Source: a virus
Taxonomy: Duplodnaviria; Heunggongvirae; Uroviricota; Caudoviricetes
Virus record (IMG/VR): IMGVR_UViG_2740892235_000015
Span: 1-10,289 of that record
DNA length: 10,289 nucleotides
Strand: one strand, 5' to 3'
Positions 1 to 10,289 of the stretch are shown here, piece by piece. A model generated the notes under the pieces. It was not told where the DNA came from. It did no database searches and saw only the letters and a list, made by a program, of their open reading frames with translations. Position 1 is the first letter of the stretch. Each line of letters begins with the position of its first letter. Position numbers and translations under genes: made by a program.

Positions 1-1242
1 ATGGCGAGAAAAACACCCCCATTAACCACAGTACAGATCAAAGCAGCCAGACCAGCAGAAAAGGAATACACCCTACAGGACGGCGGAGGGCTTTTTCTCC
101 TGATCAAACCGTCCGGATCAAAACTCTGGAGATTTTCCTACTACCGACCATCGGACAAAAAAAGAATATTGCTGAGTTTTGGATCGCTTGATGATGTTTC
201 CCTGGCTGATGCCAGAAAACGCCGTAGCGAGTACAGGGCGTTAATTCGTGCCGGAACTGACCCGCAGGACCACGAGAGGCAAAAAAGAGAGACAGAGGCC
301 CGAAGACAAGGGAACACGTTCGAAAATGTGGCAACAGCATGGTACCAGGTGAAAATCAGCCAGAATCTGGCCCCCAATACGATTAAAGACATCTGGCGAT
401 CGCTGGAAAAATATGTATTCCCGTTCATCGGCAACACGCCAATAGACACCCTGACCGCTCGCAGGTTCGTTGAGGTGCTTACCCCCATCAAGGAACGTGG
501 CAACCTGGAAACGCTCAAGCGAGTTTTACAGCGTATAAATGAGGTAATGGATTACGCCGCCAATAGTGGGATGATTGATGCCAATCCGGCTATGAATGTG
601 CGTAAGGCGTTCCCCTCCCCTGTAAAAAAACATATGCCAACAATCCGCCCCGAACAGCTGCCGGAGCTTATGCAGGCTTTATCAGTATCGGCAACAGAAC
701 GGCAGACCAGATTACTGATTGAATGGCAGTTACTGACCGTAACCCGTCCCGTTGAAGCATCGTCGGCACGCTGGGAAGAAATCGACATGGAAGCGCAACG
801 CTGGACCATACCCGCCGGACGCATGAAGATGCGCCGCGACCACGTTATCCCGCTTTGTGACCAGGCTATGGCAGTGCTGGAGGCTATGAAACCAATCAGC
901 CACCACCGCGATTATGTTTTCCCGAGTCTGAAAGACCCACAGCAGCCGATGAACAGCCAGACCGCTAACGCAGCATTACGACGCATGGGATTCGCTGGCG
1001 TGCTGGTGTCTCATGGATTACGCGCCATATTCAGCACAGCAGCGAACGAAGAAGGCTTTGAGCCGGACGTAATAGAGGCCGCACTTGCCCACGTCGACAC
1101 CAACGAAGTCAGACGGGCATACAACCGGAGCAACTACATAGAAAAACGCATCGTGCTTATGCGCTGGTGGGGCGAATTTGTCGAGGCTGCGGCGACGGGC
1201 GTAACCCTCGCCAGTGGTAAAAGGGGTATCCGAGCCGTTTAG
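1..1242 (+). CDS. int: Tyrosine recombinase, P4/CP4-57-type phage integrase
   Basis: 413-aa ORF. C-terminal catalytic signature of tyrosine recombinases (SHGLRAIFSTAANE ... EVRRAYNRSNY with terminal Tyr) and an N-terminal arm-binding-like region. Followed by an alpA-like gene as in P4-like islands. The window starts exactly at its ATG, so the att site would lie upstream, outside the window. Confidence 0.93.
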   Translation: MARKTPPLTTVQIKAARPAEKEYTLQDGGGLFLLIKPSGSKLWRFSYYRPSDKKRILLSFGSLDDVSLADARKRRSEYRALIRAGTDPQDHERQKRETEARRQGNTFENVATAWYQVKISQNLAPNTIKDIWRSLEKYVFPFIGNTPIDTLTARRFVEVLTPIKERGNLETLKRVLQRINEVMDYAANSGMIDANPAMNVRKAFPSPVKKHMPTIRPEQLPELMQALSVSATERQTRLLIEWQLLTVTRPVEASSARWEEIDMEAQRWTIPAGRMKMRRDHVIPLCDQAMAVLEAMKPISHHRDYVFPSLKDPQQPMNSQTANAALRRMGFAGVLVSHGLRAIFSTAANEEGFEPDVIEAALAHVDTNEVRRAYNRSNYIEKRIVLMRWWGEFVEAAATGVTLASGKRGIRAV

Positions 1243-1340
1243 CTGTACAGAAAACCAGTAAAAACTACGAAAACCATTTAAAACCGTCGTATAATTGCAT
1301 CACATTTAACGACGAGGCCTTGAAAAATGAAACTGTTAAG

Positions 1341-1571
1341 ATGCAAACAAATTTCAGATGCAATTGCGACGGGCTGCAACTGGCCCTGATGGTTCAGCAT
1401 GAATTTTGGTCAACCTACGATCCGGAGGACAGAACGACGGCCCCATCAAAAAAACAGGTAGTAGATTTCCTGGTATCCCGTGGGGCTTCCAGAAATCTGG
1501 CTGTAAGTATTGATAAGGTTGTACGTCCGGCATCCATGAAGACCGGAGGCAGGCCAAAAAAATGGCGGTAA
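1341..1571 (+). CDS. Hypothetical small protein (76 aa from ATG 1341; alternative TTG start at 1320)
   Basis: ORF ends 10 nt before a canonical rho-independent terminator. A perfect -10 hexamer TATAAT lies at 1290-1295, with a poor -35. The overlapping minus-strand ORF 1354..1620 has a less protein-like composition. No recognisable domain. Confidence 0.3.
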   Translation: MQTNFRCNCDGLQLALMVQHEFWSTYDPEDRTTAPSKKQVVDFLVSRGASRNLAVSIDKVVRPASMKTGGRPKKWR

Positions 1572-1581
1572 CAATCCTGAA

Positions 1582-1605
1582 AGCGGCAGAAATGCCGCTT
1601 TTTTT
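1582..1605 (+). terminator. Rho-independent terminator
   Basis: Stem AGCGGCA / TGCCGCT (7 bp) with loop GAAA, followed by a run of 7 T. Confidence 0.6.
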
Positions 1606-1632
1606 ATAAATCCCTTTCAAATCATCAATATA

Positions 1633-1720
1633 AAAAACGGTGTATACCGTTTAAAAACGGTGAGTACTGTTTTTCCCTGCATCCGATGATTTACCGTATT
1701 TCTCACCGGAATACACCGGA
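1633..1720 (+). promoter_or_regulatory. Repeat-rich region upstream of alpA (candidate promoter/operator or recombinase-binding sites)
   Basis: Direct repeat AAAAACGGTG at 1633-1642 and 1653-1662 (20-bp spacing). Inverted repeat ACGGT-gtat-ACCGT at 1637-1650. Direct repeat ACCGGA at 1705-1710 and 1715-1720. GAGG SD at 1726-1729, 9 nt before the alpA ATG. Confidence 0.3.
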
Positions 1721-1738
1721 TTAATGAGGTAAATCACG

Positions 1739-1945
1739 ATGGAAGCAATCAAAAAAGTCATCTTTCGCCAGGAAGTAAAAAAACTTATCCACATTAAGGC
1801 AGACAGCACGCTGCAAAGCATGATCAACGCCGGAGAATTCCCGCAGGGTTTTCGTGTCGGTTTGCGCCGTCGCGGATGGTATGAGGAAGACGTAATCGCA
1901 TGGATGAAAGAACGAGAACAAGAAGCGCGCGGAACGACCGCTTAA
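1739..1945 (+). CDS. alpA: AlpA-family helix-turn-helix regulator (prophage excision/transcription activator-like)
   Basis: 68 aa. Sequence pattern typical of the AlpA family (KKLIHIKADSTLQSMINAGEFPQGFRVGLRRRGWYEEDVIAWMKE). Position immediately downstream of int. GAGG SD. Confidence 0.8.
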   Translation: MEAIKKVIFRQEVKKLIHIKADSTLQSMINAGEFPQGFRVGLRRRGWYEEDVIAWMKEREQEARGTTA

Positions 1946-2066
1946 CATATATAGGGCAAATGATGAACATAAAAAAAGCGGCCCCGAAATGGAGCCACCT
2001 TTCTGAACAATTAACCCGCTGCGCCGTATGTGTCAACAATCATAAGCCTGGGCATGATAACCGCGA

Positions 2067-2270
2067 TCAGGCTGGTGGGCAATTATCTTTCTTGTTGGGG
2101 CCGTATTGTGCTGCCATTTTCATCCGTTCAGAACGTGAATATTTTTTTAGAAACTCATCAAGGACAAAAGCGCATGGTGCGAATCTTTCTGATTCATGCT
2201 CGAGCGCCATATTTTCGTGCTCTCTGTTCGTTTTTTGCGATGGTGTATCGGTTGATTCTTTATTGGTCAT
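2067..2270 (-). CDS. Hypothetical small protein (67 aa), second gene of RHH operon 1
   Basis: Minus-strand ORF starting MTNKESTD. Its ATG and first three codons (ATGACCAA) lie inside the conserved R1 element directly downstream of the RHH gene. SD is weak (AGG). No recognisable domain. Confidence 0.45.
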   Translation of the reverse strand: MTNKESTDTPSQKTNREHENMALEHESERFAPCAFVLDEFLKKYSRSERMKMAAQYGPNKKDNCPPA

Positions 2271-2323
2271 TGTGTGTACCTGTAAAGCAATGCGCCGTAG
2301 TACCTCACGCCACGGCGCTGATG
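2263..2323 (-). repeat. R1 copy a: conserved intercistronic element with stem-loop
   Basis: 45-nt core at 2279-2323 is identical to 3460-3504. Contains a hairpin, stem GCGCCGT / ACGGCGC with a 13-nt loop. TTGGTCAT at 2263-2270 (the start-codon region of the downstream minus gene) is also shared, with an 8-nt variable spacer between. Confidence 0.85.
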
Positions 2324-2327
2324 TTTT

Positions 2328-2501
2328 TTATCCTTTGGGTTCAATACCGCGTTGCTGTAATTCTTTTCGGAGTACTCGCTTGATCCAGGTGGCTAAAGAA
2401 GTGTCACCGTCTGCTTTCGCTGCCTCTTCAAGTTGTGCTCTGAATTCTTCTGGTAGCCGCATTTGGTATGGAGGCGATCGCTTTTCCAATGGTGTTGACA
2501 T
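2328..2501 (-). CDS. Ribbon-helix-helix (Arc/MetJ/CopG-type) DNA-binding protein, 57 aa
   Basis: Hand translation of the minus strand gives MSTPLEKRSPPYQMRLPEEFRAQLEEAAKADGDTSLATWIKRVLRKELQQRGIEPKG. The MRLPEEF...L...A......S...WI...L pattern is a classic RHH strand-helix-helix. AAGGG SD 9-10 nt upstream. Not in the supplied ORF track, presumably because it is below the length cutoff. Confidence 0.7.
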   Translation of the reverse strand: MSTPLEKRSPPYQMRLPEEFRAQLEEAAKADGDTSLATWIKRVLRKELQQRGIEPKG

Positions 2502-2541
2502 GGTAATTACCCTTAATTACTATAGTTACATGGTAATTACC
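2498..2541. promoter_or_regulatory. Candidate operator: two copies of the perfect palindrome GGTAATTACC
   Basis: ACATGGTAATTACC at 2498-2511 and 2528-2541, 30 bp centre to centre, with a TAATTAC half-site between them (2514-2520). Lies in the divergent region abutting the RHH start codon and upstream of the rightward leader. Confidence 0.5.
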
Positions 2542-2569
2542 ATTGTACTTACCGTTATACAAAAAACAA

Positions 2570-2611
2570 CGCCCCGCAGTGGTGGCTCACATACGGGGCG
2601 TCTAACCAAAC
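2570..2611 (+). repeat. R2 copy a: leader stem-loop plus conserved TCTAACCAA tail
   Basis: CGCCCCG-ca-GTG-gtggct-CAC-ata-CGGGGCG (2570-2600) followed by TCTAACCAAAC (2601-2611), then GAGG SD and ATG at 2632. Same architecture as 3822-3860. Confidence 0.6.
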
Positions 2612-2631
2612 CATTAATTGAGGTAACGATT

Positions 2632-2718
2632 ATGGCTATAAAAGAGCATAGCTTACTCTTTATACACNNNNNNNNNNTTCGCTGGCGGTTATGCAACTTA
2701 GTGCTGATATGGCGCTGA
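2632..2718 (+). pseudogene. Probable degenerate or interrupted Ash/Icd-like paralog
   Basis: Starts MAIKEHSLLFIH, paralleling the MVAVNHIPHLVH start of the 3881 gene, with the same upstream leader element. Interrupted after 12 codons by the N run. Reads IWR then stop after the gap where the paralog has VWRFLAL. Frame across the gap is unknowable. Confidence 0.3.
2668..2677. other. Run of 10 N (unknown sequence, possible scaffold gap or masked bases)
   Basis: Directly visible in the sequence. Confidence 1.
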
Positions 2719-2767
2719 ATGAGGCCAAAGCTATCCTGATTGCTGATTGTGAAAATGGGGGGGGGTT

Positions 2768-3001
2768 ATGCGTGATGATCGTTTTTATTCCCTGAAACAA
2801 GAATTTTCCGGCGTATCTGATGATGCGGCTGATGCGCTTTCGTCAATGCCAGAACTTATTAGAGCGGCTTTTTTCTTACTTTCCACGAAAGAATATAAAT
2901 CAACGGGACTTGATGTACTGAATATCGCCGCCGATTATGCGGAATATGTGGCAGAGGCGCGTTACAGAAGAAAATTTCCTGAGGATGTAAGCCATGCGTG
3001 A
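2768..3001 (+). CDS. Hypothetical small protein (77 aa)
   Basis: ORF MRDDRFYSLKQEF... with helical, protein-like composition. A G9 homopolymer immediately upstream serves as the SD region. The stop overlaps the start of the next ORF (ATGCGTGA), suggesting translational coupling. The opposite-strand ORF 2859..3116 looks like antisense noise. Confidence 0.5.
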   Translation: MRDDRFYSLKQEFSGVSDDAADALSSMPELIRAAFFLLSTKEYKSTGLDVLNIAADYAEYVAEARYRRKFPEDVSHA

Positions 3002-3210
3002 TATTTACCACGAAACAACAGAACGCGTATTTCTTGCACTTTCTCACAGTGAAAACATGCTGGAAATATTGCGCATATGGCTTGAAACACTTGGCGACAA
3101 TGAACGCGACAAACAAAAATCAAGAATTGTCACGGCATTAATAACGCTTCTTGAGCCTGTAATAAATGAGTTGCAGGAAATAGAGACATTGCACGACAGA
3201 TATAACGAAC
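2994..3210 (+). CDS. Hypothetical small acidic protein (at least 72 aa; 3' end lost in N run)
   Basis: ORF MRDIYHETTERVFLALSHSENMLEILRIWLETLGDNERDKQK..., with GAGGA SD at 2981-2985. Net acidic and helical. Runs into the N run at 3211, so the true stop is undefined. The 292-aa extension in the ORF track is antisense to real minus-strand genes and is not credible. Confidence 0.45.
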
Positions 3211-3220
3211 NNNNNNNNNN
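3211..3220. other. Run of 10 N (unknown sequence, possible scaffold gap or masked bases)
   Basis: Directly visible in the sequence. Lies between convergent genes. Confidence 1.
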
Positions 3221-3223
3221 TAC

Positions 3224-3451
3224 TCATCCTGGCGGGCGATTCTTACGGGACTTTAGCCGCCGTGGGCAGCTTGCTAAAAATGCCTCCAACGCGAATAGTC
3301 CAGGTTTCATTTCTATCGGTATTAGTTGGATATTCAGAGGATTAGCCAGTTCGGCTTCAAGGCGAGCACAGGTTTCTAACTGCCTTTGCCGAATGATTTC
3401 ATCTTCTTGCGTATGCGTGTCTTGTATTGGTGATAGTGTGTTGTTGGTCAT
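3224..3451 (-). CDS. Hypothetical small protein (75 aa), second gene of RHH operon 2
   Basis: Minus-strand ORF starting MTNNTLSP. Start region ATGACCAA is shared with the 2067..2270 gene and embedded in the R1 element. The stop codon is reached before the N run, so the ORF is complete as shown. No recognisable domain. Confidence 0.45.
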   Translation of the reverse strand: MTNNTLSPIQDTHTQEDEIIRQRQLETCARLEAELANPLNIQLIPIEMKPGLFALEAFLASCPRRLKSRKNRPPG

Positions 3452-3504
3452 GGTACTGCCCTGTAAAGCAATGCGCCGTAGTACCTCACGCCACGGCGCT
3501 GATG
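3444..3504 (-). repeat. R1 copy b: conserved intercistronic element with stem-loop
   Basis: 45-nt core at 3460-3504 is identical to 2279-2323. TTGGTCAT at 3444-3451 is also shared. Sits between the stop of RHH gene 2 and the start of the downstream small gene. Confidence 0.85.
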
Positions 3505-3508
3505 GTGA

Positions 3509-3688
3509 TTATTCTGATTCTTTGGCCTTGCGACGCTGGCGGTATTCAACTTCCCGCTTTAATGCAGCTGTAACAAACTGCCCTGTACTTTCGCCGGGCA
3601 TTTTTACCGCCTCAACATTGTTCATAACTTCATGTGGAACCCTTGCCGCAACTGTTTGTGATTTTGCGTTTACTGCTTTTGTCGCCAT
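3509..3688 (-). CDS. Probable ribbon-helix-helix DNA-binding protein, 59 aa
   Basis: From ATG at 3688: MATKAVNAKSQTVAARVPHEVMNNVEAVKMPGESTGQFVTAALKREVEYRQRRKAKESE. RHH-like strand (TVAARVPHEV) followed by two short helices. GAGGGG SD 8 nt upstream. The ORF-track start at 3697 is a GTG. Confidence 0.6.
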   Translation of the reverse strand: MATKAVNAKSQTVAARVPHEVMNNVEAVKMPGESTGQFVTAALKREVEYRQRRKAKESE

Positions 3689-3717
3689 GTTGAGCACCCC
3701 TCATAAAAAACAAATGC

Positions 3718-3814
3718 AGTATGCAGGAAAAAAAATAAGTGTTCAACACTTGACGTGTTTAACACCTCGATTTAAATTGGTGTTCAACACCTTATTTAGG
3801 CAAGGTGTTGAAAC
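3718..3814. promoter_or_regulatory. Divergent promoter/operator region of module 2
   Basis: Rightward sigma70-like promoter: -35 TTGACG (3750-3755), 17-nt spacer, -10 TAAATT (3773-3778). Leftward: -35 TTGAAC (complement of 3741-3746), 17-nt spacer, -10 CATACT (complement of 3718-3723). Inverted-repeat motif GTGTT-N-AACAC at 3739-3749, 3755-3765 and 3780-3790, plus a half-site variant at 3805-3814, overlapping both promoters. Confidence 0.5.
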
Positions 3815-3820
3815 GACGAA

Positions 3821-3860
3821 ACCCCGCACTGTAGGAGCAGTAACGGGGCTTCTAACCAAC
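3821..3860 (+). repeat. R2 copy b: leader stem-loop plus conserved TCTAACCAAC tail
   Basis: CCCCG-c-ACTG-taggag-CAGT-aa-CGGGG (3822-3848) followed by TCTAACCAAC (3851-3860), then AGGAG SD and ATG at 3881. Both stems differ in sequence from copy a but keep the same architecture. Confidence 0.6.
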
Positions 3861-3880
3861 AACGTAAACTAGGAGCCGTT

Positions 3881-4444
3881 ATGGTTGCTGTAAATCATAT
3901 ACCACACCTTGTACACACACAAACTGCCTTTGTGTGGCGTTTTCTGGCCCTGAATATCGGAGAAAAAAACCAGTTGATCGCCAGTGTCGAAAATAGCTAT
4001 GATTCCCGCGCACCTCATAAAACGGGTGTCGGGATTAGCCTCCTGAAAACAACTGAAGCGCACAGCACGCGCCCCGCGTGTTTTTTTGTGCCGCATAGTC
4101 ACACCTTATCAATGGTGGGCTGTACGGGGGCGGAGCAATCCGCGCCGGTTTCTTCAGTGTCCGGTAAGGCTAACCCTGTACAGTCCGCCACCAGCGAAAT
4201 TAGCCTTTTGCGTGGCGGTTATCTTAACCACACTGAGGAGGCTGCCAACATGGCTACTACCCCTGCCCTCGTACATTCTCAAACAGCCTTTATCTGGCGC
4301 TTTATTGCCTTTGGCGCGTCAGACCATCAAATCATCCACGTAACCGCCTGGACGGAACGCGAAGCGCGTAACCGTTGCCCGTACGGTTGTGTTGCTGTGT
4401 TCGCCGCCCGTATTCGTCAGGGGGCGCACCATGCACAATTATGA
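3881..4444 (+). CDS. Tandem-repeat protein, possibly Ash/Icd-like (P4-associated family)
   Basis: 187 aa with an internal duplication: LVHTQTAFVWRFLAL near the N-terminus and LVHSQTAFIWRFIAF around residue 130. AGGAG SD at 3871-3875. An in-frame internal ATG at 4250 is preceded by GAGGAGG (4235-4241). Family assignment is from memory of Icd-like sequences (FxWRF and NRC motifs) and is unverified. Confidence 0.55.
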   Translation: MVAVNHIPHLVHTQTAFVWRFLALNIGEKNQLIASVENSYDSRAPHKTGVGISLLKTTEAHSTRPACFFVPHSHTLSMVGCTGAEQSAPVSSVSGKANPVQSATSEISLLRGGYLNHTEEAANMATTPALVHSQTAFIWRFIAFGASDHQIIHVTAWTEREARNRCPYGCVAVFAARIRQGAHHAQL

Positions 4445-4631
4445 AGCGCACTTACCTGTAGTTCTTAATGTGCCGTCAGATTATACGGGACGCGTTTTGA
4501 TATTTCTCGATAAAGGGAAAGTGAAATCACAATGCCGCCTTAGAAATAATGAGGTTGTTGGTTCTCTGGCTTTTTTTTCTGAGGCCTGTATTCGTGCCGG
4601 AATAAAACTTGAATCACTGACAGGAAAATAA
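4431..4631 (+). CDS. Hypothetical small protein (66 aa)
   Basis: ATG at 4431 preceded by a GGGGG SD. Overlaps the 3' end of the upstream gene by 14 nt. No recognisable domain. Confidence 0.4.
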   Translation: MHNYEAHLPVVLNVPSDYTGRVLIFLDKGKVKSQCRLRNNEVVGSLAFFSEACIRAGIKLESLTGK

Positions 4632-4636
4632 AAACC

Positions 4637-4936
4637 ATGAAAAAGAAAAATTCTGGCTTTACTGCCAGTGACTTCTCTCGGCCTGAAATCCGCCCCGGCG
4701 ATATTTTCCGTGATAACTACGGCGGTACGGTAACGATTAAAGGCGTGGCAGAACGGCGCATCACCTACCGTCGTGAAGGCTACGAATATGATTGCGTGAT
4801 GCCTGTTTATCAGTTCCGGCGTGATTTTTCTCTGGTACAGACCGCGCCGCATAACGTGCCCACCTGCAGGGAGAAAGCACGCGCCAATATTCAGAAGATG
4901 AAAAACATGATTAACGGATTCAGGGGCAAGAAATGA
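4637..4936 (+). CDS. Hypothetical protein (99 aa)
   Basis: ORF with AGGAAA SD-like sequence. Its stop overlaps the start of the replication ATPase gene (ATGA), suggesting co-translation within the replication operon. Confidence 0.5.
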   Translation: MKKKNSGFTASDFSRPEIRPGDIFRDNYGGTVTIKGVAERRITYRREGYEYDCVMPVYQFRRDFSLVQTAPHNVPTCREKARANIQKMKNMINGFRGKK

Positions 4937-6330
4937 AAAGCGCACCGAACTTAAAAAAACAGCCTTACGACAAGATGACCGAAGTCATCATTTTTGCGGG
5001 TAGTGATGCGTGGGCACATGCGAAACAGTGGCAGGAACAGGACGGGCGACTGGCTGGCGATAATGTGCCTCCCATTGTGCTGGCTGATGATCAACTGGAT
5101 GAACTGGCAGACCTGAGAATCATCGACGAGGGGCGCTATTGTGTCCGGCTGTACAAGGCAGGCCACATCAGGCCATCAAATATTAATGCCATTGCGCACA
5201 AGCTGGCGGCGGCGGGCGTAACTGATGCGAATTATTACCCCGAAGGGATACACAGCCAGAAGCGGGAGAACTGGCGCGAATATCTGGAACGGGAGCGGGG
5301 GAAAAAGCCAGGGGAAGAACACCACCAGCGAAAAACCACGCTACCGATGAGCGTTGGATCTGCCGGATACGACACGCAATTAGATTACGTGGTAAAGGGG
5401 ATTATTCCGGCATCGTCGCTATGCAGCATATACGGGGCAAGCGGTTCCTATAAATCATTCCTTGCGGGTTCGTGGGCGTGTCACGTTTCCACGGGCCGCC
5501 AGTGGGGAGGCCGCAGGGTGGCGCATGGCGCTGTTCTCTATGTGGTTGGTGAAGGCGGTATCGGCGTTCCGCGTCGTGTAAAAGCCTGGGAGGTTGTGCA
5601 CGGTGAGCAGGTGAAAAATCTGTATCTGGTAAACCGTCCAGTTTTTCCGGCTGTCCCGCTTGATGTTGATGAACTGGTTATCGCTGCCCGTCAGGTGGAG
5701 CGGGAAACGGGTAAACCTGTACGCATGATTATTCTTGATACTCTGGCGCGTTGCTTTGGTGGCAATGATGAAAATGATTCCCGTGATATGGGGGCGTTTA
5801 TCCGTGGGTGTGACGAGCTTAAACGGCGCACAGGGGCCACGGTGCTGGTGGTTCACCATTCCGGCAAGGATGAGACGAAAGGCGCGCGCGGTTCCAGTGC
5901 ATTTCGTGCATCACTGGATGCTGAATACCGGATACGCAGGGAGGACGCAGGAAGCGAAGCGCTGGTTATCTCATGCACCAAAATGAAGGACGCGGAGGAA
6001 CTCAAAGAAGCCGCATATGACTTACGCGTGGTGGAGCTTTTTACCGACGCTGACGGGGAGTTAATCACGTCGCTGGTGGTGGTGGATAAGCCGCGCCCTC
6101 CCGTTGAACTGGAGCGCATCGAGGAGGCAGGCAACAAGACGGAAAACCATACCGCGCTATGGGGATGCATACGTTCACGCACACAGCACGGCGACAAGTG
6201 CACGATCCCGCTGTTACGTGACGATATGAAAAAGCTGGGGTATGACACAAAACACCTTAAACGATGGTTAGCCAAACTGGAAAAAGACGACGTGATCTAC
6301 ATTGACGGTGATGATGTAGGACCACTGTAA
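4933..6330 (+). CDS. Replication ATPase/helicase, RecA-fold (RepA/AAA_25-like) with uncharacterised N-terminal domain
   Basis: 465 aa. Walker A GASGSYKS (aa 168-175), Walker B-like RMIILDT, and a VVHHSGKDETKG motif typical of RepA-like RecA-fold helicase-ATPases. The iteron array starts immediately after the stop codon. Confidence 0.88.
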   Translation: MKSAPNLKKQPYDKMTEVIIFAGSDAWAHAKQWQEQDGRLAGDNVPPIVLADDQLDELADLRIIDEGRYCVRLYKAGHIRPSNINAIAHKLAAAGVTDANYYPEGIHSQKRENWREYLERERGKKPGEEHHQRKTTLPMSVGSAGYDTQLDYVVKGIIPASSLCSIYGASGSYKSFLAGSWACHVSTGRQWGGRRVAHGAVLYVVGEGGIGVPRRVKAWEVVHGEQVKNLYLVNRPVFPAVPLDVDELVIAARQVERETGKPVRMIILDTLARCFGGNDENDSRDMGAFIRGCDELKRRTGATVLVVHHSGKDETKGARGSSAFRASLDAEYRIRREDAGSEALVISCTKMKDAEELKEAAYDLRVVELFTDADGELITSLVVVDKPRPPVELERIEEAGNKTENHTALWGCIRSRTQHGDKCTIPLLRDDMKKLGYDTKHLKRWLAKLEKDDVIYIDGDDVGPL

Positions 6331-6532
6331 AAAGTGGGCATTAAAAGTGGGAAAGGTGGGCAATTTAACGGAATTTTAACAAAATTACCCACTTTCCCAC
6401 GTGTATATATCCCAAAAAGTGGGCACTAAAAAAATACCTATGAAACAAGATGATATAAATCCCAAATTTCCCACGTTGGACGAAGTGGGAAAACGTAAAA
6501 AGTGGGCGAAAAAAGTGGGTAGAGGTGGGCAA
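6331..6532. repeat. Iteron array, candidate origin of replication
   Basis: About ten copies of (A)AAGTGGG(C/A)A or GGTGGGCAA in both orientations: direct at 6331-6340, 6343-6354, 6354-6363, 6416-6425, 6483-6493, 6497-6508, 6511-6520, 6522-6532; inverted at 6388-6400 and 6467-6474. An AT-rich stretch lies between them (6365-6412). Confidence 0.6.
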
Positions 6533-6784
6533 ATGACTCAAAAACACAGAGACAGAACAGAGCCAAAATATAAAGCGTTAGACATGACAGAGCACGCCTT
6601 AAAGGTGGCAATCAGAACGATAGACCGCCACGCGGGGGAAGGATACGCGAAGGAACATCCCGACCTGATAAGCGCATTCATGACCACAGCAGCAGCAAAC
6701 TTTGCCACGCTGACAGAACGGGAGATTGCCGAAGCGGAACAGGTAACAACAATCAACGTTAAAACCGGAGAGGTGGAATCATGA
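6533..6784 (+). CDS. Hypothetical protein (83 aa)
   Basis: ATG at 6533 with GAGG SD at 6522-6525. Start chosen downstream of the iterons rather than the ORF-track start at 6401. Stop overlaps the SSB start (ATGA). Confidence 0.5.
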   Translation: MTQKHRDRTEPKYKALDMTEHALKVAIRTIDRHAGEGYAKEHPDLISAFMTTAAANFATLTEREIAEAEQVTTINVKTGEVES

Positions 6785-7203
6785 CAGCACAGATAGCCGC
6801 TTACGGGCGGCTGGTGGCTGACCCACAGTTAAAGACCACCAGCAAGGGTACACAAATGGCGATGGCGAGTATGGCTGTCCCCCTGCCGTGCAGCCAGGCC
6901 GATGACGGAACGGCGACGATGTGGTTATCCGTCCTGGCGTTTGGCAGACAGGCCGACGCACTGGCAAAACACCACAAAGGCGAACTGGTGAGCGTGGCGG
7001 GTAACATGCAGGTGAGCCAGTGGACAGGCCAGAACGGCGAAACGCGGCAGGGCTGGCAGGTTATCGCTGACAGCGTAATCAGTGCCAGAACGGCGCGACC
7101 AGGTGGTAAAAAAGGCCAGCAGGGCCAGGCTACTGACGCACTGAACAGGGCAAAACAACAGGCGGGTAACGATGATCCGTACGGGGATAACATACCGTTT
7201 TAA
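6781..7203 (+). CDS. ssb: Single-stranded DNA-binding protein (SSB-like)
   Basis: 140 aa. OB-fold-like core resembling SSB (AFGRQA...KGELV.V.G.MQ...WT.Q.GE.R.GW). Gly/Gln-rich linker and a C-terminal acidic tail ending DNIPF, like the DDDIPF tail of bacterial SSB. Confidence 0.75.
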   Translation: MTAQIAAYGRLVADPQLKTTSKGTQMAMASMAVPLPCSQADDGTATMWLSVLAFGRQADALAKHHKGELVSVAGNMQVSQWTGQNGETRQGWQVIADSVISARTARPGGKKGQQGQATDALNRAKQQAGNDDPYGDNIPF

Positions 7204-7219
7204 GCAACGAGTGACAGAA

Positions 7220-7241
7220 GCCGGAGCAATCCGGCTTTTTT
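7220..7241 (+). terminator. Rho-independent terminator
   Basis: Stem GCCGGA / TCCGGC with loop GCAA, followed by T6. Lies 17 nt after the SSB stop. Confidence 0.7.
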
Positions 7242-7248
7242 GTAGGTA

Positions 7249-7430
7249 CTCCTGGTGGGGGTGGCCTGTCCACGGGGCGGGCGGCGCGGAAAAAAGCGCA
7301 TTTTTTGATTTTTATGGCACCATCACCACCACTATAAGTTATTGATATATTGAAGAATAAAAATTTTTAGTGTCGAATCAGGTTGTTTTTTGTTCATCAC
7401 TGGAGCGTTCCCGAAAGCATTTACAAAAAA
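7249..7430 (+). repeat. R3 copy a: duplicated intergenic control module
   Basis: GC-rich block at 7249-7312 nearly identical to 9786-9850. Shared TATAAGT (7333-7339), AGGTTGTTTTTTGTTC (7380-7395) and TTTACAAAAAA (7420-7430), with the same spacings as in copy b. Confidence 0.8.
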
Positions 7431-7669
7431 ACAGGCGCAAAAAAAGCGCCCCCGATTGCTGTTACCGGAGGCGCTTTTACACGACAAAGGAGTTTTTATC
7501 GCCAGGATGACGAGTCTTAATATTGCTTCAATAGCAAAAATGCGTCAATGGCTTTGCCTCTCTGAGAATAATCAGAAAAATCATAATCTGATTTTATGGT
7601 AGAAAATAATTTATCTATTACTTTTATCGATCAATAATGATGCCCGTTAATCAAAACGGAGGCGGATTT

Positions 7670-7864
7670 ATGCCAGAGAACAACACCAGAAAGCCGGATA
7701 AAAGTGCCACGGTACACATAGACGCCGGAACTATGGAGAAGATCGAACGCTATCAGCAGTTCATCAAAGATAATCACCCGGGTATGCCAGTGCCCACGAA
7801 AGGACAAATCACACGCAGCGCGGTTGAATACTGGTACAGGGCAACGTTAGGAGCCTGGCTATGA
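7670..7864 (+). CDS. Hypothetical small protein (64 aa)
   Basis: ATG at 7670 with GGAGG SD at 7658-7662. Stop overlaps the start of the protease/capsid gene (ATGA). No recognisable domain. Confidence 0.5.
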   Translation: MPENNTRKPDKSATVHIDAGTMEKIERYQQFIKDNHPGMPVPTKGQITRSAVEYWYRATLGAWL

Positions 7865-9750
7865 AAACATGGTTTTCCATTAAGGCTATGGCAGATGTTG
7901 TACATGTGCGCATTTATGACGAGATCGGCGGGTACGGTGTAAAAGCATCGGCACTTACTGACGAGATCAACGCGTGTGGTAATGCGTCTGAAATCCATCT
8001 TCGCATCCATTCACCTGGTGGCGACATCTTTGAAGGGCTGGCTATCTATAACGCTCTGAAAAATCATCCGGCAAAAAAAATCGTACACATTGAAGGCATG
8101 GCGGCTTCTATGGCGTCGTTTATTGCCATGTGTGGAGATCACATCGTTATGCCTGAAAACGCGATGATGATGATACATGCCCCCCGTGGTGTTACTGCCG
8201 GAGTGTCGGGCGACGTTCGCCGCTTTGCTGATCTGATGGACAAGCTGGGCGACACGATGGCAGAAACCTATGCCGGAAGAACGGGCAGGAGCAAACAGGA
8301 GATCACCTCAATGATGGAGGCGGAAACCTGGATGGATGGCAATGAGTGTAAGGCTAACGGCTTCGCAGATGAGGTTATACCCGCGATTACAGCAATGGCC
8401 CGAATTGAATCAAAACGAATCGGAGATTTTTCAAATATGCCGGAAAAAATTAAAAGCATGATCAGCCAGAAAACTGGCAGTGGCGAACAGGAACGACTTA
8501 ACGGAATCCGTGAATTGTTTGGCACCTTCAACGGAAGATATAACGACCTGGCTATAAGTTGTCTTGCGGATTCAGAATGTAGCGTTGAGAATGCACGCGA
8601 ACGCCTTTTACTCGCTATGGGTAAAGAATCAACGCCAACAAACAAAACCACCCCCGCAAATCTTTACTACGCGTACACGGATAACGGCAATATAACTGGC
8701 GATGCCATGCGTCAGGGGCTTAATGCGCGTCTTGGTCACGAACGGGCCGAACGCGGTAATCCTTACGCCATGATGAGTCTTTTCGATATGGCACAGGCAT
8801 CATTAACCCATCGTGGTATAAGCACGGGCAGCTACAGCACACGCTCGCAGATAGTAAACGCGGCATTCACCCACAGCAGCAGCGATTTTACAGATATCCT
8901 TGCTGGTGGCGCTGAAAAATCAGTGCTTGCAGGCTGGGAGCACAGCGGCGAAACATTCCGCCAGTGGACGAAAAAAGGTTCCCTTTCAAACTTCCGGGAA
9001 GCCCGCCGCGTTGGTATGAATGGCTTCTCAACGTTAAACAAAGTGCCGGAAGGGGCAGAATATAAATACATCACCACCAGCGATCGCGGTGAACCCATCG
9101 CGCTGGCTACTTACGGGAATATTTTCAGCATTACCCGCCAGGCGATAATCAATGATGACCTTGATCAGTTATCAACGGTGCCAATGGCTATGGGCCGTGC
9201 AGCATCAAGAACGGTGGGAAATCTGGTTAATCTGGTGCTTACAGGCAACGTAAAACTTTCTGACGGAATAACGCTGTTTGACAAAAAACACAGCAACCTG
9301 ATTGAAGCAGGACTGACAACACCGGGACTTAGTGCAGCACGTCACCTGATGCGCACACAGAAGGACAAAAATGGCGAAGTGCTGAATATTGCGCCTAAAT
9401 TCCTTTTAGTTCCGGCAGCACTGGAAGATCGCGCGTTGCAGATGATTAACTCAACCGCACCTTTCGGGGCTGATAAAAACAGCGGGATCTTTAACCCGTA
9501 CCACAAGCTACTTGATATCATCGTCGATCCCCGCCTTGATGATATCAGCGAAAAACAATGGTACATGCTTTCCGCACAGGGAACGGACACAATCGAGGTG
9601 GCTTATCTTGATGGCAATGACGAGCCTTACCTTGAACAGCAGGAAGGTTTTATCGTTGACGGCGTGGCCTGGAAAGTCCGTATTGATGCAGGTGTGGCAG
9701 CTCTGGATTATCGCGGTATGGTCAAATCAGGCGGTACCGATTCACTATGA
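7861..9750 (+). CDS. Prohead protease (ClpP-like, S14) fused to HK97-like major capsid protein
   Basis: 629 aa. The N-terminal ~190 aa match the ClpP pattern (IHSPGGDIFEGLAIYNALK ... GMAASMASFIAMCGD ... MMIHAPRGV, compare ClpP INSPGG, AASMGAF, MIHQP). The C-terminal ~300 aa resemble the HK97-fold major capsid family. A linker or scaffold-like region lies between. AGGAG SD. Confidence 0.88.
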   Translation: MKTWFSIKAMADVVHVRIYDEIGGYGVKASALTDEINACGNASEIHLRIHSPGGDIFEGLAIYNALKNHPAKKIVHIEGMAASMASFIAMCGDHIVMPENAMMMIHAPRGVTAGVSGDVRRFADLMDKLGDTMAETYAGRTGRSKQEITSMMEAETWMDGNECKANGFADEVIPAITAMARIESKRIGDFSNMPEKIKSMISQKTGSGEQERLNGIRELFGTFNGRYNDLAISCLADSECSVENARERLLLAMGKESTPTNKTTPANLYYAYTDNGNITGDAMRQGLNARLGHERAERGNPYAMMSLFDMAQASLTHRGISTGSYSTRSQIVNAAFTHSSSDFTDILAGGAEKSVLAGWEHSGETFRQWTKKGSLSNFREARRVGMNGFSTLNKVPEGAEYKYITTSDRGEPIALATYGNIFSITRQAIINDDLDQLSTVPMAMGRAASRTVGNLVNLVLTGNVKLSDGITLFDKKHSNLIEAGLTTPGLSAARHLMRTQKDKNGEVLNIAPKFLLVPAALEDRALQMINSTAPFGADKNSGIFNPYHKLLDIIVDPRLDDISEKQWYMLSAQGTDTIEVAYLDGNDEPYLEQQEGFIVDGVAWKVRIDAGVAALDYRGMVKSGGTDSL

Positions 9751-9756
9751 CAACAA

Positions 9757-9778
9757 GGCGGCACCAGCCGCCTTTTTT
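9757..9778 (+). terminator. Rho-independent terminator
   Basis: Stem GGCGGC / GCCGCC with loop ACCA, followed by T6. Lies 7 nt after the capsid gene stop. Confidence 0.7.
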
Positions 9779-9785
9779 GCGGGTC

Positions 9786-9969
9786 CTCCTGGTGGGGTGG
9801 GCCTGAACACGGGGCGGGCGGCGCGGAAAAAAGCGCATTTTTTTGATTTTATCGTCATCATCATCATGTGTATAAGTGATTGTTTTTAATTATTTTGATG
9901 TGAAAAAGATGATGAAGAAGGTTGTTTTTTGTTCGACATCTTTTAGCGTGACAGATTCTTTACAAAAAA
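9786..9969 (+). repeat. R3 copy b: duplicated intergenic control module
   Basis: GC-rich block at 9786-9850 nearly identical to 7249-7312. Shared TATAAGT (9871-9877), AGGTTGTTTTTTGTTC (9919-9934) and TTTACAAAAAA (9959-9969). Confidence 0.8.
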
Positions 9970-10007
9970 TCTGAGCTTGTTTTCTTCACCAGCGCGATGG
10001 GGGCACA

Positions 10008-10289
10008 ATGACAGAAGCCGAAATACTGGGATTAATCCGTCGCGTTGCCGGAATCAGCCAGCAGGCTGACGAACAGGCCACGCAGCCGGACAGCGTGACC
10101 GCCGAAAATTATGCGCGTGTGGTTGCTGAGGTGATGCGCCGTGATGGTATTGAGCTTAACGGCGTGGATATGCGCAACATACGAACCAGAGTCCTTGAGT
10201 TGCTGGCATACCGTCGCCGCGTGGAGATGTATCGGGAGAAGGAGAAAATCACGTATCACTGGAAGAAGCCGGAGCGGTTACGGCGGTAA
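10008..10289 (+). CDS. Hypothetical protein (93 aa); its position after the capsid gene suggests a head-completion or connector role, unverified
   Basis: ORF with GGGGG SD. First gene after the second R3 module. The window ends at its stop codon. No motif recognised with confidence. Confidence 0.5.
   Translation: MTEAEILGLIRRVAGISQQADEQATQPDSVTAENYARVVAEVMRRDGIELNGVDMRNIRTRVLELLAYRRRVEMYREKEKITYHWKKPERLRR

Follow-up and report, generated by a model that had tools for sequence, protein, structure and literature searches.

A duplicated palindrome as the putative operator of an Arc-like ribbon-helix-helix regulator in a P4/PICI-like phage satellite

Introduction

Which protein acts at the duplicated palindrome that abuts the start codon of a small ribbon-helix-helix (RHH) gene in the IMG/VR virus record IMGVR_UViG_2740892235_000015, and do gene and palindromes form a regulatory unit of their own? 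The DNA analyzed here, positions 1 to 10,289 of this record and called the window throughout, is the left part of a probably capsid-forming phage satellite that resembles P4 as well as phage-inducible chromosomal islands (PICIs). It contains two regulatory modules in tandem, each with a small RHH gene (RHH1 in module 1, RHH2 in module 2) and its own repeats. A first-pass annotation of the sequence had proposed that the palindromes of module 1 are an operator different from that of module 2. Our analysis makes it very probable that the duplicated palindrome is the cognate operator of RHH1, an Arc/Mnt-like protein with a specificity distinct from that of module 2, and that it works by the mechanism set out below. 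This operator reading is supported by the conserved pair of sites with its spacing and position, by covariation of the palindromes with the RHH beta-strand, and by cassette exchange among relatives in Escherichia coli.

Two palindromes overlap the predicted promoters of module 1

The duplicated palindrome reported by the first-pass annotation was recovered. ACATGGTAATTACC is present at 2498-2511 and at 2528-2541, and its core GGTAATTACC (2502-2511 and 2532-2541) is a perfect 10-bp palindrome. The reported spacing of 30 bp is correct from start to start, but it corresponds to approximately 2.9 and not exactly three helical turns. Copy 1 lies at the RHH start codon as claimed, since the CAT at 2499-2501 inside it begins the minus-strand open reading frame (ORF) 2328-2501. 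A repeat finder listed the copies as a direct pair (D2) and additionally as an inverted pair (I5, 2500-2511 / 2532-2543). Because of this inverted pair we took the 14-bp sequence ATGGTAATTACCAT as the symmetric unit; it is perfect in the distal copy (O2) and matches at 12 of 14 positions in the proximal copy (O1; see Table 1 for coordinates). A possible weak third site, O3, adjoins O2. TTGTAATTACAA is found at the equivalent offset in four relatives (loci L004, L015, L016 and L018), and the -10 hexamer of the predicted RHH1 promoter, which O3 overlaps, may account for some of this conservation. A candidate fourth site, CTTAATTACT at 2512-2521, was dropped as it is not conserved among relatives. 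When both strands were scanned for ATGGTAATTACC with up to two mismatches, five matches were obtained, all of them within 2500-2553 and one of them O3, while shuffled sequences gave 0.82 on average. No such site was found in the remainder of the 10.3-kb window.

The putative operators overlap a predicted early promoter. O1 is located in the spacer of the rightward promoter TTGACA-17-TACTAT, a consensus prediction, just past the -35 hexamer, and O2 begins at the predicted start point (approximately 2530). O1 also overlaps the RHH1 start codon (2499-2501) and the Shine-Dalgarno sequence AAGGG (2510-2514, minus strand), which lie on either side of its core. The leftward RHH1 promoter was read from the sequence and scored under the threshold of the promoter scan. 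Its -10 hexamer TACAAT abuts O2, and a TAnAAT motif beside O2 is conserved in the 14-locus alignment described below. The predicted RHH1 start (approximately 2535) is inside O2. The two promoters would therefore point toward one another; O2 would overlie the start points of both, and O3 the -10 hexamer of the RHH1 promoter.

The rightward -35 hexamer is also the reverse complement of RHH1 codons 1-2 plus the first base of codon 3 (ATG TCA A; 2495-2501 of the window). The N-terminal Met-Ser-Thr encoded by codons 1-3 is kept family-wide in the protein alignment, which looks like a constraint common to protein and promoter.

Palindromes and RHH beta-strands change together

RHH1-family loci were recovered from species-representative genomes (62 loci). 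About 30 loci of the main class, from at least 14 genera, retain the proximal site GGGTAATTACCATG immediately next to the start codon, and the distal site of this class, ATGGT[A/C][A/G]TTACCAT, follows 30-31 bp upstream. In an alignment of 14 loci from more than 10 genera, TTGACA was kept and the conserved blocks were GGTGTTGACATGGTAATTACCC, a -10-like hexamer at 17-bp spacing, and TACATGGTAA..ACCATT.TA, while the positions between the blocks drift.

Four classes of beta-strand sequence were each associated with a palindrome of their own. The main class (at least 14 genera), with KRSP[Q/P][Y/F]QMRL, carries GGTAATTACC in most of its approximately 33 loci. KRSPQFPMRL, found in Photorhabdus and Citrobacter, goes with GGTATATACC (8/8). 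Proteins with KTDQYQ[I/L]RL (Pectobacterium, Cedecea and others) or NKSxQYQ[I/L]RL (Pasteurellaceae) are accompanied by TGTAATTACA, the former in about 17 of 20 loci. Finally, RGNPPFQFRL of Pantoea, Enterobacter and Leminorella is paired with GTGTAATTACAC or close variants (4/4). The changes between classes are symmetric within a site and present in both sites. Symmetric paired changes are to be expected of a dimeric DNA binder, and linkage alone does not explain them. Two genomes contain two classes, each with its own palindromes: Yersinia similis Y228 (L018 and L049) and Photorhabdus heterorhabditis SF41 (L010 and L035). As both classes coexist in one genome, host background is not the cause of the covariation.

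Regulator and operators are exchanged as a cassette

Relatives in E. coli carry different RHH/repeat sets between the same flanks. In L001 the module 1 slot contains a YlcI/YnfO-type protein and three copies of GGTGTATTTCACC. In L002 the 3' part of the RHH1 gene is kept and combined with another N-terminal half and with palindromes of the GTGTATATACAC type; likewise, L066 keeps the 3' part (87% identity over 78 nt in both) while N-terminal half and palindromes differ. Since this joint falls inside the RHH gene, the exchanged unit consists of beta-strand and operators. Conversely, L065 has a module 1 identical to that of the window, and its module 2 slot holds another cassette with GTAAGAC repeats. 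The RHH1 cassette was found paired with at least three different module 2 cassettes. A search with the boundary hairpin yielded 57 further loci from IMG/VR (L067-L123), in which the slot is occupied by about 20 RHH variants of two families, most with a private 9-mer repeated 3-5 times. In the YlcI/YnfO-type cassettes the repeat copies are found at similar distances from the start codon, and the most variable residues of the protein are those between KSQ and R.P, the predicted strand. In L001, L002, L065, L066 and the IMG/VR loci, regulator and operators are thus replaced together between homologous flanks. This pattern agrees with the comparison to heteroimmune repressors made in the first-pass annotation.

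The same data bear on the possibility that another dimeric protein, such as AlpA or a helper-phage or host factor, binds the palindromes, and that their match to the RHH1 class reflects cassette linkage. Gene and sites are indeed adjacent and co-inherited, and AlpA is an experimentally shown activator of Gram-negative PICIs (PMC6092414). However, the exchanged unit does not contain any second DNA-binding gene, and in L002 and L066 the beta-strand half of the RHH gene moves with the sites. Furthermore, one AlpA/int backbone (WP_000953271.1 in L001, L002 and L066) bears different cassettes, and two classes coexist in one host. We therefore consider binding by another protein improbable.

RHH1 and its operator region are under purifying selection

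Among complete E. coli genomes, at least 54 share the RHH1 cassette with no less than 99% identity. A more distant copy was found in E. coli MS1679 (L124, NZ_CP097719.1, 3494-3810), where an RHH1-type cassette is the sole module and directly precedes icd-DUF4222-primase. The RHH1 coding DNA of L124 is 85.6% identical to that of the window; of the codon changes, 24 are synonymous and one is non-synonymous. The stretch 2502-2553 is identical in both (52/52); at 14% coding divergence the chance of zero changes in 52 sites is about 4 in 10,000. By this computation, both RHH1 and the operator region are under purifying selection. A window-type RHH1 is predicted to act in trans on the L124 island. 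Members of the family also precede isrK/C4 in Pasteurellaceae and icd-DUF4222-repA in Cedecea.

In complete-genome relatives of the window, the rightward unit of module 1 comprises only the leader and about 15 codons and ends in a 50-nt hairpin with a T-run; the leftward orfY is next. Module 1 therefore is no second full operon switch in such elements. To judge from this layout, it looks like a duplicated regulatory cassette in which regulator and promoters were retained and the operon was lost. This reduced unit, together with the intact, ancestor-like arrangement in L124, could suggest that recombination between two satellites left module 1 behind as a dead remnant with unused palindromes. 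Such a history is very unlikely in view of the intact RHH1 frame with its strong excess of synonymous changes, the identity of the 52-nt operator/promoter stretch to L124, and the near-identical cassettes in the complete E. coli genomes.

RHH1 is a predicted Arc-like protein

RHH1 matched PHROG 228, 'Arc-like repressor', with E=4.9e-7. Its 93 homologues (63-96% identity) are distributed over Enterobacterales, Pasteurellaceae, Aeromonadales and Gilliamella, and the family is nearly absent from phage records (4/50,697). An AlphaFold2 (AF2) model showed an extended chain to residue 17 and helices at 18-31 and 36-50 (mean per-residue confidence, pLDDT, of 76), which fits the RHH layout; the model is a monomer, and the beta-strand can form only in a dimer. 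Structural neighbours found with Foldseek were RHH proteins, namely Arc (top), AmrZ, ParG, NikR and antitoxins. The best local match was AmrZ (PDB 3qoq; root-mean-square deviation 1.3 A over 38 residues, 37% identity), which was not significant. By eye, PPYQMRLP of RHH1 aligns with PQFNLRWP of Arc, and on this alignment residues 11, 13 and 15 would point toward the DNA.

RHH1 is followed by a second small ORF, orfX, and many RHH proteins are antitoxins; MazE9, TacA, VapB and ParD are among the structural neighbours, and some homologues are named 'HicB family antitoxin' in databases. RHH1 and orfX might accordingly be the antitoxin and the toxin of a type II pair, with the palindromes as the autoregulatory operator of the pair and not as a switch of satellite genes. 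This is highly improbable. orfX occurs only in Enterobacteriaceae satellites, where it lies behind at least three unrelated RHH cassettes, and RHH1 homologues in other genera and in L124 are found without it. Between orfX and RHH1 lies a 57-nt spacer that contains a hairpin, and RHH1, with its 57 aa, lacks a C-terminal toxin-binding tail. Moreover, the operators also cover a strong predicted divergent promoter, which drives icd/primase genes in relatives. orfX and its module 2 counterpart orfY were rejected as cognate toxins as they are not constant partners of the RHH genes. Both orfX (2067-2270) and orfY (3224-3451) start with MTN, have the upstream linker in common and are restricted to Enterobacteriaceae satellites. 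No mutual similarity was detected between them, and neither gave a match in Pfam, NCBIfam or among annotated PHROGs.

A model for RHH1 action

We infer that RHH1 binds the palindromes, represses from them, and does so without cross-talk with RHH2. In the proposed mechanism, one RHH1 dimer per 14-bp palindrome would insert a two-stranded beta-ribbon (residues ~10-17, PPYQMRLP) into the major groove at the centre of the site. A dimer on O1 would occupy the -35/-10 spacer of the near-consensus rightward promoter and would also lie, on the DNA, over the ribosome-binding site and start codon of RHH1. A dimer on O2 would cover the predicted start points of the rightward and the face-to-face RHH1 promoter, and the weak O3 would overlap the -10 hexamer of the latter. 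From this placement it follows that occupancy would shut the rightward promoter and autoregulate the RHH1-orfX unit. Specificity would be held in the beta-strand and the N-terminal arm and would differ from that of RHH2, which is paired with GTGTTNAACAC sites; therefore, the two modules should act independently. Satellites exchange the beta-strand part of the gene and the operators as a single cassette. Conserved linkers delimit this cassette, on one side the hairpin that follows the RHH gene and on the other a leader hairpin with TCTAACCA.

Several observations weigh against this reading. The covariation is no strict code: within the RGNPPFQFRL class the palindrome centre is AATT in Pantoea and Enterobacter, and E. 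coli L002 and L066 have TATA in their distal site; main-class distal sites differ in their centres (GGTCGTTACC); and two Pantoea loci (L051 and L057) do not contain a clear palindrome. Part of the covariation is shared descent, because gene and operators are physically linked. The match of RHH1 to Pfam Arc (PF03869) is under the curated cut-off (16.5 vs 20.4 bits; E=0.008), no Foldseek match was significant (all E >1), so that the structural neighbours are a qualitative pointer, and a search of PDB sequences with the family profile lends no support to membership, as it returned nothing besides designed helical repeats and a single RHH protein, AmrZ, at E=0.73. Both start points are predicted, as is the RHH1 promoter. 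Lastly, the rightward unit of module 1 is truncated in such elements, and runs of N interrupt the window just downstream.

A role of the sites in RNA, in which the self-complementary copies pair within the RHH1 mRNA leader and control translation, is extremely improbable: copy 1 does lie between Shine-Dalgarno sequence and start codon, identical palindromes are mutually complementary and the rightward leader could fold O2 with O3, but pairing between copies needs complementarity and not that each copy is palindromic, the predicted RHH1 start inside O2 leaves only part of O2 in the mRNA, the rightward RNA lacks O1, and in YlcI-type cassettes the promoter hexamers are surrounded by 3-5 copies in both orientations, as is the arrangement of protein operators.

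Beyond operator binding by RHH1, a wider role can be proposed tentatively, and we regard it as possible and not as the expected outcome. Small RHH genes with private operators might be the missing repressor or immunity determinants of Gram-negative PICIs and capsid-forming PICIs (cf-PICIs). A hypervariable set of about 20 or more specificities, exchanged at the linkers, might then decide on co-residence or exclusion of satellites, and RHH1 might silence in trans those rivals that run their replication operon from GGTAATTACC operators, such as the island of MS1679. Such action in trans against rival satellites might also be the reason why module 1 lost its operon and yet keeps a working RHH1; a single satellite would then hold a second immunity aimed at a competitor.

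Module 2 has its own repeats and an RNA layer

The GTGTT-N-AACAC repeats attributed to module 2 were found as three copies of GTGTT[C/T]AACAC that occur nowhere else in the window. They surround a predicted promoter consisting of TTGACG (3750-3755), a 17-bp spacer and TAAATT (3773-3778). The AF2 model of RHH2, computed from the single sequence, has an extended N-terminus and two helices, as in RHH1. The first-pass annotation had called the two regulators paralogous. They are indeed distant relatives (profile-profile comparison, 84% probability, E=7.5e-6), but they are not close, with 27% identity, a BLASTP E of 0.02 and membership of different families: RHH1 scored 20.1 bits (E=4.8e-4) against the YlcI/YnfO profile NF041551, for which the curated cut-off is 30 bits. 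YlcI/YnfO-type proteins exist in a short form of 59 aa and a long form of about 101 aa (loci L067-L123, L001, L065 and L066). In the long form a helical insert (..AEGSGENPLVSSL..) precedes the common C-terminus RRKAKESE and may serve as an additional domain for oligomerisation or sensing.

Downstream of the module 2 promoter, an isrK-like and a C4/CI-like antisense RNA precede the icd-like gene as an RNA layer of immunity. The loop UUUCUUCAGUGU of the C4-like RNA (4149-4160) has a sole complement in the window with G-U pairs allowed, ACACUGAGGAGG at 4230-4241. It spans the Shine-Dalgarno sequence that serves the icd-like gene (ATG at 4250), an arrangement known from c4-icd of P1/P7. RNAduplex runs with the whole C4 RNA against the leaders were uninformative, as control windows scored equal or better. 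The ORF 3881-4444 spans both RNA genes, and each of its ends matches one half of PHROG 29966; the RefSeq name for its first part is a truncated 'ash family protein'. In this respect it resembles P4, where the CI RNA lies in a protein-coding frame (PMC10111431).

Relation to known regulatory systems

In Salmonella phage P22, the Arc and Mnt repressors act at the Pant/Pmnt operators of the immI region. As in that system, the proteins considered here are very small RHH proteins in which an N-terminal beta-strand reads the DNA (predicted for RHH1), the operators are symmetric and located on closely opposed promoters, and, as for mnt, the regulator gene is transcribed away from the accessory immunity operon. 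No close sequence relationship to Arc is detectable, however; the two systems have unrelated operator sequences, and RHH1 resides in a satellite instead of a phage. Arc uses one 21-bp operator bound by a dimer of dimers on adjacent half-sites, whereas the RHH1 arrangement has two 14-bp palindromes 30 bp apart and a possible third site 12 bp away. By analogy, Arc/Mnt would be the closest counterpart in mechanism and the lambdoid heteroimmune regions the closest in population pattern. In the latter (lambda, 434, 21 and P22), repressor specificity and operators are likewise replaced jointly at conserved joints, and different alleles coexist in one host. Unlike the lambdoid regions, the cassettes encode an RHH and not a helix-turn-helix fold, measure only about 250-400 bp, occupy two slots in tandem, and are putative immunity determinants.

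Immunity of P1/P7 (ImmI) and P4 (CI) acts through RNA, and P1 additionally uses the C1 repressor at Op51. The operon downstream of module 2 is similar to c4-icd-ant of P1/P7 and to the P4 CI RNA in its isrK-like and C4-like RNAs and its icd-like gene, with a C4 loop complementary to the icd ribosome-binding site. To our knowledge, descriptions of P1/P7 ImmI and P4 include no RHH protein that has a private operator at the promoter of the operon. A further parallel exists with Stl/Rpr of the Gram-positive PICIs (SaPIs), where the regulator is divergent from the replication or early operon, lies next to int and varies between islands. Unlike RHH1, Stl/Rpr are larger helix-turn-helix proteins that are released by helper-phage proteins. 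AmrZ of Pseudomonas aeruginosa is Arc-like as well, although its structural match was not significant; it differs from RHH1 as a global regulator encoded in the chromosome, and it has an N-terminal arm and other sites.

For Gram-negative PICIs, AlpA is the published regulator, an activator, and the global repressor was described as unclear in 2018 (PMC6092414). This gap would be closed by a small repressor that has its operators on the early promoter, and the RHH1/operator pair may be relevant here. We found no description of RHH/operator cassettes in the literature on PICIs, cf-PICIs and these RHH families, the coverage of which was incomplete, so that this is no proof of novelty. If the many specificities are real, they would explain how several related satellites can share one E. 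coli genome. The natural variants, comprising two RHH families, dozens of beta-strands and matching palindromes, are a data set on how RHH beta-strands read DNA, and could supply orthogonal repressor/operator pairs in about 250 bp each.

The satellite and its boundary hairpins

In order, the satellite has an integrase and AlpA, the two regulatory modules, the isrK/C4 RNAs, an icd-like gene and DUF4222, followed by a RepA helicase, single-stranded DNA-binding protein (SSB) and protease-capsid (Table 1). The window includes int, AlpA, the RepA helicase, SSB and the 629-aa protease-capsid ORF, and the right end of the element is beyond it. This layout agrees with Gram-negative PICIs and cf-PICIs (PMC10111431; bioRxiv 10.1101/2022.09.08.507074). 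In a sequence search, about 1,500 complete E. coli genomes carried related DNA, at up to six places per genome. A tRNA-Pro gene adjoins the element in L065.

Table 1. Features of the window discussed in the text.
Feature	Position	Strand	Description
P4-type integrase	1-1242		
AlpA-like gene	1739-1945		weak Pfam match
Terminator-like hairpin with U-run	1971-2003	-	ends the RHH1-orfX unit; -19.9 kcal/mol, z = -4.25
orfX	2067-2270	-	67 aa; second gene of the leftward unit; PHROG 21027 (unknown function)
Conserved hairpin GCGCCGT-N13-ACGGCGC	2292-2318	-	between RHH1 and orfX; left boundary of the exchangeable cassette
RHH1	2328-2501	-	57-aa Arc-like RHH protein (predicted); beta-strand PPYQMRLP, residues 10-17
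Rightward promoter (predicted)	2495-2523	+	-35 TTGACA 2495-2500, 17-bp spacer, -10 TACTAT 2518-2523; 10/12 match
O1, proximal operator (putative)	2500-2513		ATGGTAATTACCCT, 12/14 palindrome, core GGTAATTACC at 2502-2511
O2, distal operator (putative)	2530-2543		ATGGTAATTACCAT, perfect 14-bp palindrome over the predicted start points of both promoters
Leftward RHH1 promoter (inferred)	2542-2569	-	-10 TACAAT 2542-2547, 16-bp spacer, weak -35 TTGTTT 2564-2569
O3, possible weak third site	2544-2553		TGTACTTACC, 8/10 core match, 12 bp from the O2 centre
Leader hairpin CGCCCCG..CGGGGCG, then TCTAACCAA	2570-2609	+	hairpin at 2570-2600; delimits the cassette on the right; homologous to module 2 positions 3811-3859
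Start of a short Ash/Icd-like frame (MAIKEHSLLFIH..)	2633-2667	+	cut by an N-run; begins like the Ash/Icd-like frames of module 2
RHH2	3509-3688	-	59-aa YlcI/YnfO-type regulator of module 2; NCBIfam NF041551, 59.5 bits; PHROG 949; annotated with 59 aa in relatives
Module 2 operators (putative)	3739-3815		GTGTTCAACAC 3739-3749, GTGTTTAACAC 3755-3765, GTGTTCAACAC 3780-3790, degenerate GGTGTTGAAAC 3805-3815
isrK-like RNA	4010-4086	+	Rfam, 61.8 bits, over gathering score; downstream of the module 2 promoter
C4/CI-like antisense RNA	4108-4195	+	Rfam, 75.4 bits, over gathering score; downstream of the module 2 promoter
icd-like gene	4250-4444	+	NCBIfam; preceded by isrK/C4 RNAs
AAA_25 RepA helicase, DUF4222, SSB and 629-aa protease-capsid ORF	downstream of the icd-like gene		Pfam for the helicase; ORF list

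Runs of ten N at 2668-2677 and 3211-3220 enclose a block of 533 nt, which is 100% identical to a mid-gene piece of the early operon in other E. coli satellites. Where the window has this block with its two N-runs, a hairpin/terminator-like stretch of 50 nt is found in complete-genome relatives. To judge from these comparisons, the block is probably a scaffold join in the source assembly, and the ORFs at 2768-3210 within it were rejected as cargo of module 1.

The hairpin between RHH1 and orfX falls in repeat D1 (75 nt, 85% identity), the module 2 copy of which is at 3441-3515. The hairpin itself (2292-2318 and 3473-3499) is conserved in all cassettes, where it separates each RHH gene from the small ORF behind it (orfX or orfY), and is not followed by a U-run; it may be a processing site or a recombination linker. 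On the other side of the cassette, the leader region corresponds to repeat D3, with 71% identity over 49 nt between the modules. The leader hairpin and the TCT[A/G]ACCA motif (2570-2609, 3819-3859; loci L003-L064) are kept across genera, while the stem sequences differ. On the opposite strand a T-run comes after this hairpin, which resembles a terminator just upstream of the RHH promoter.

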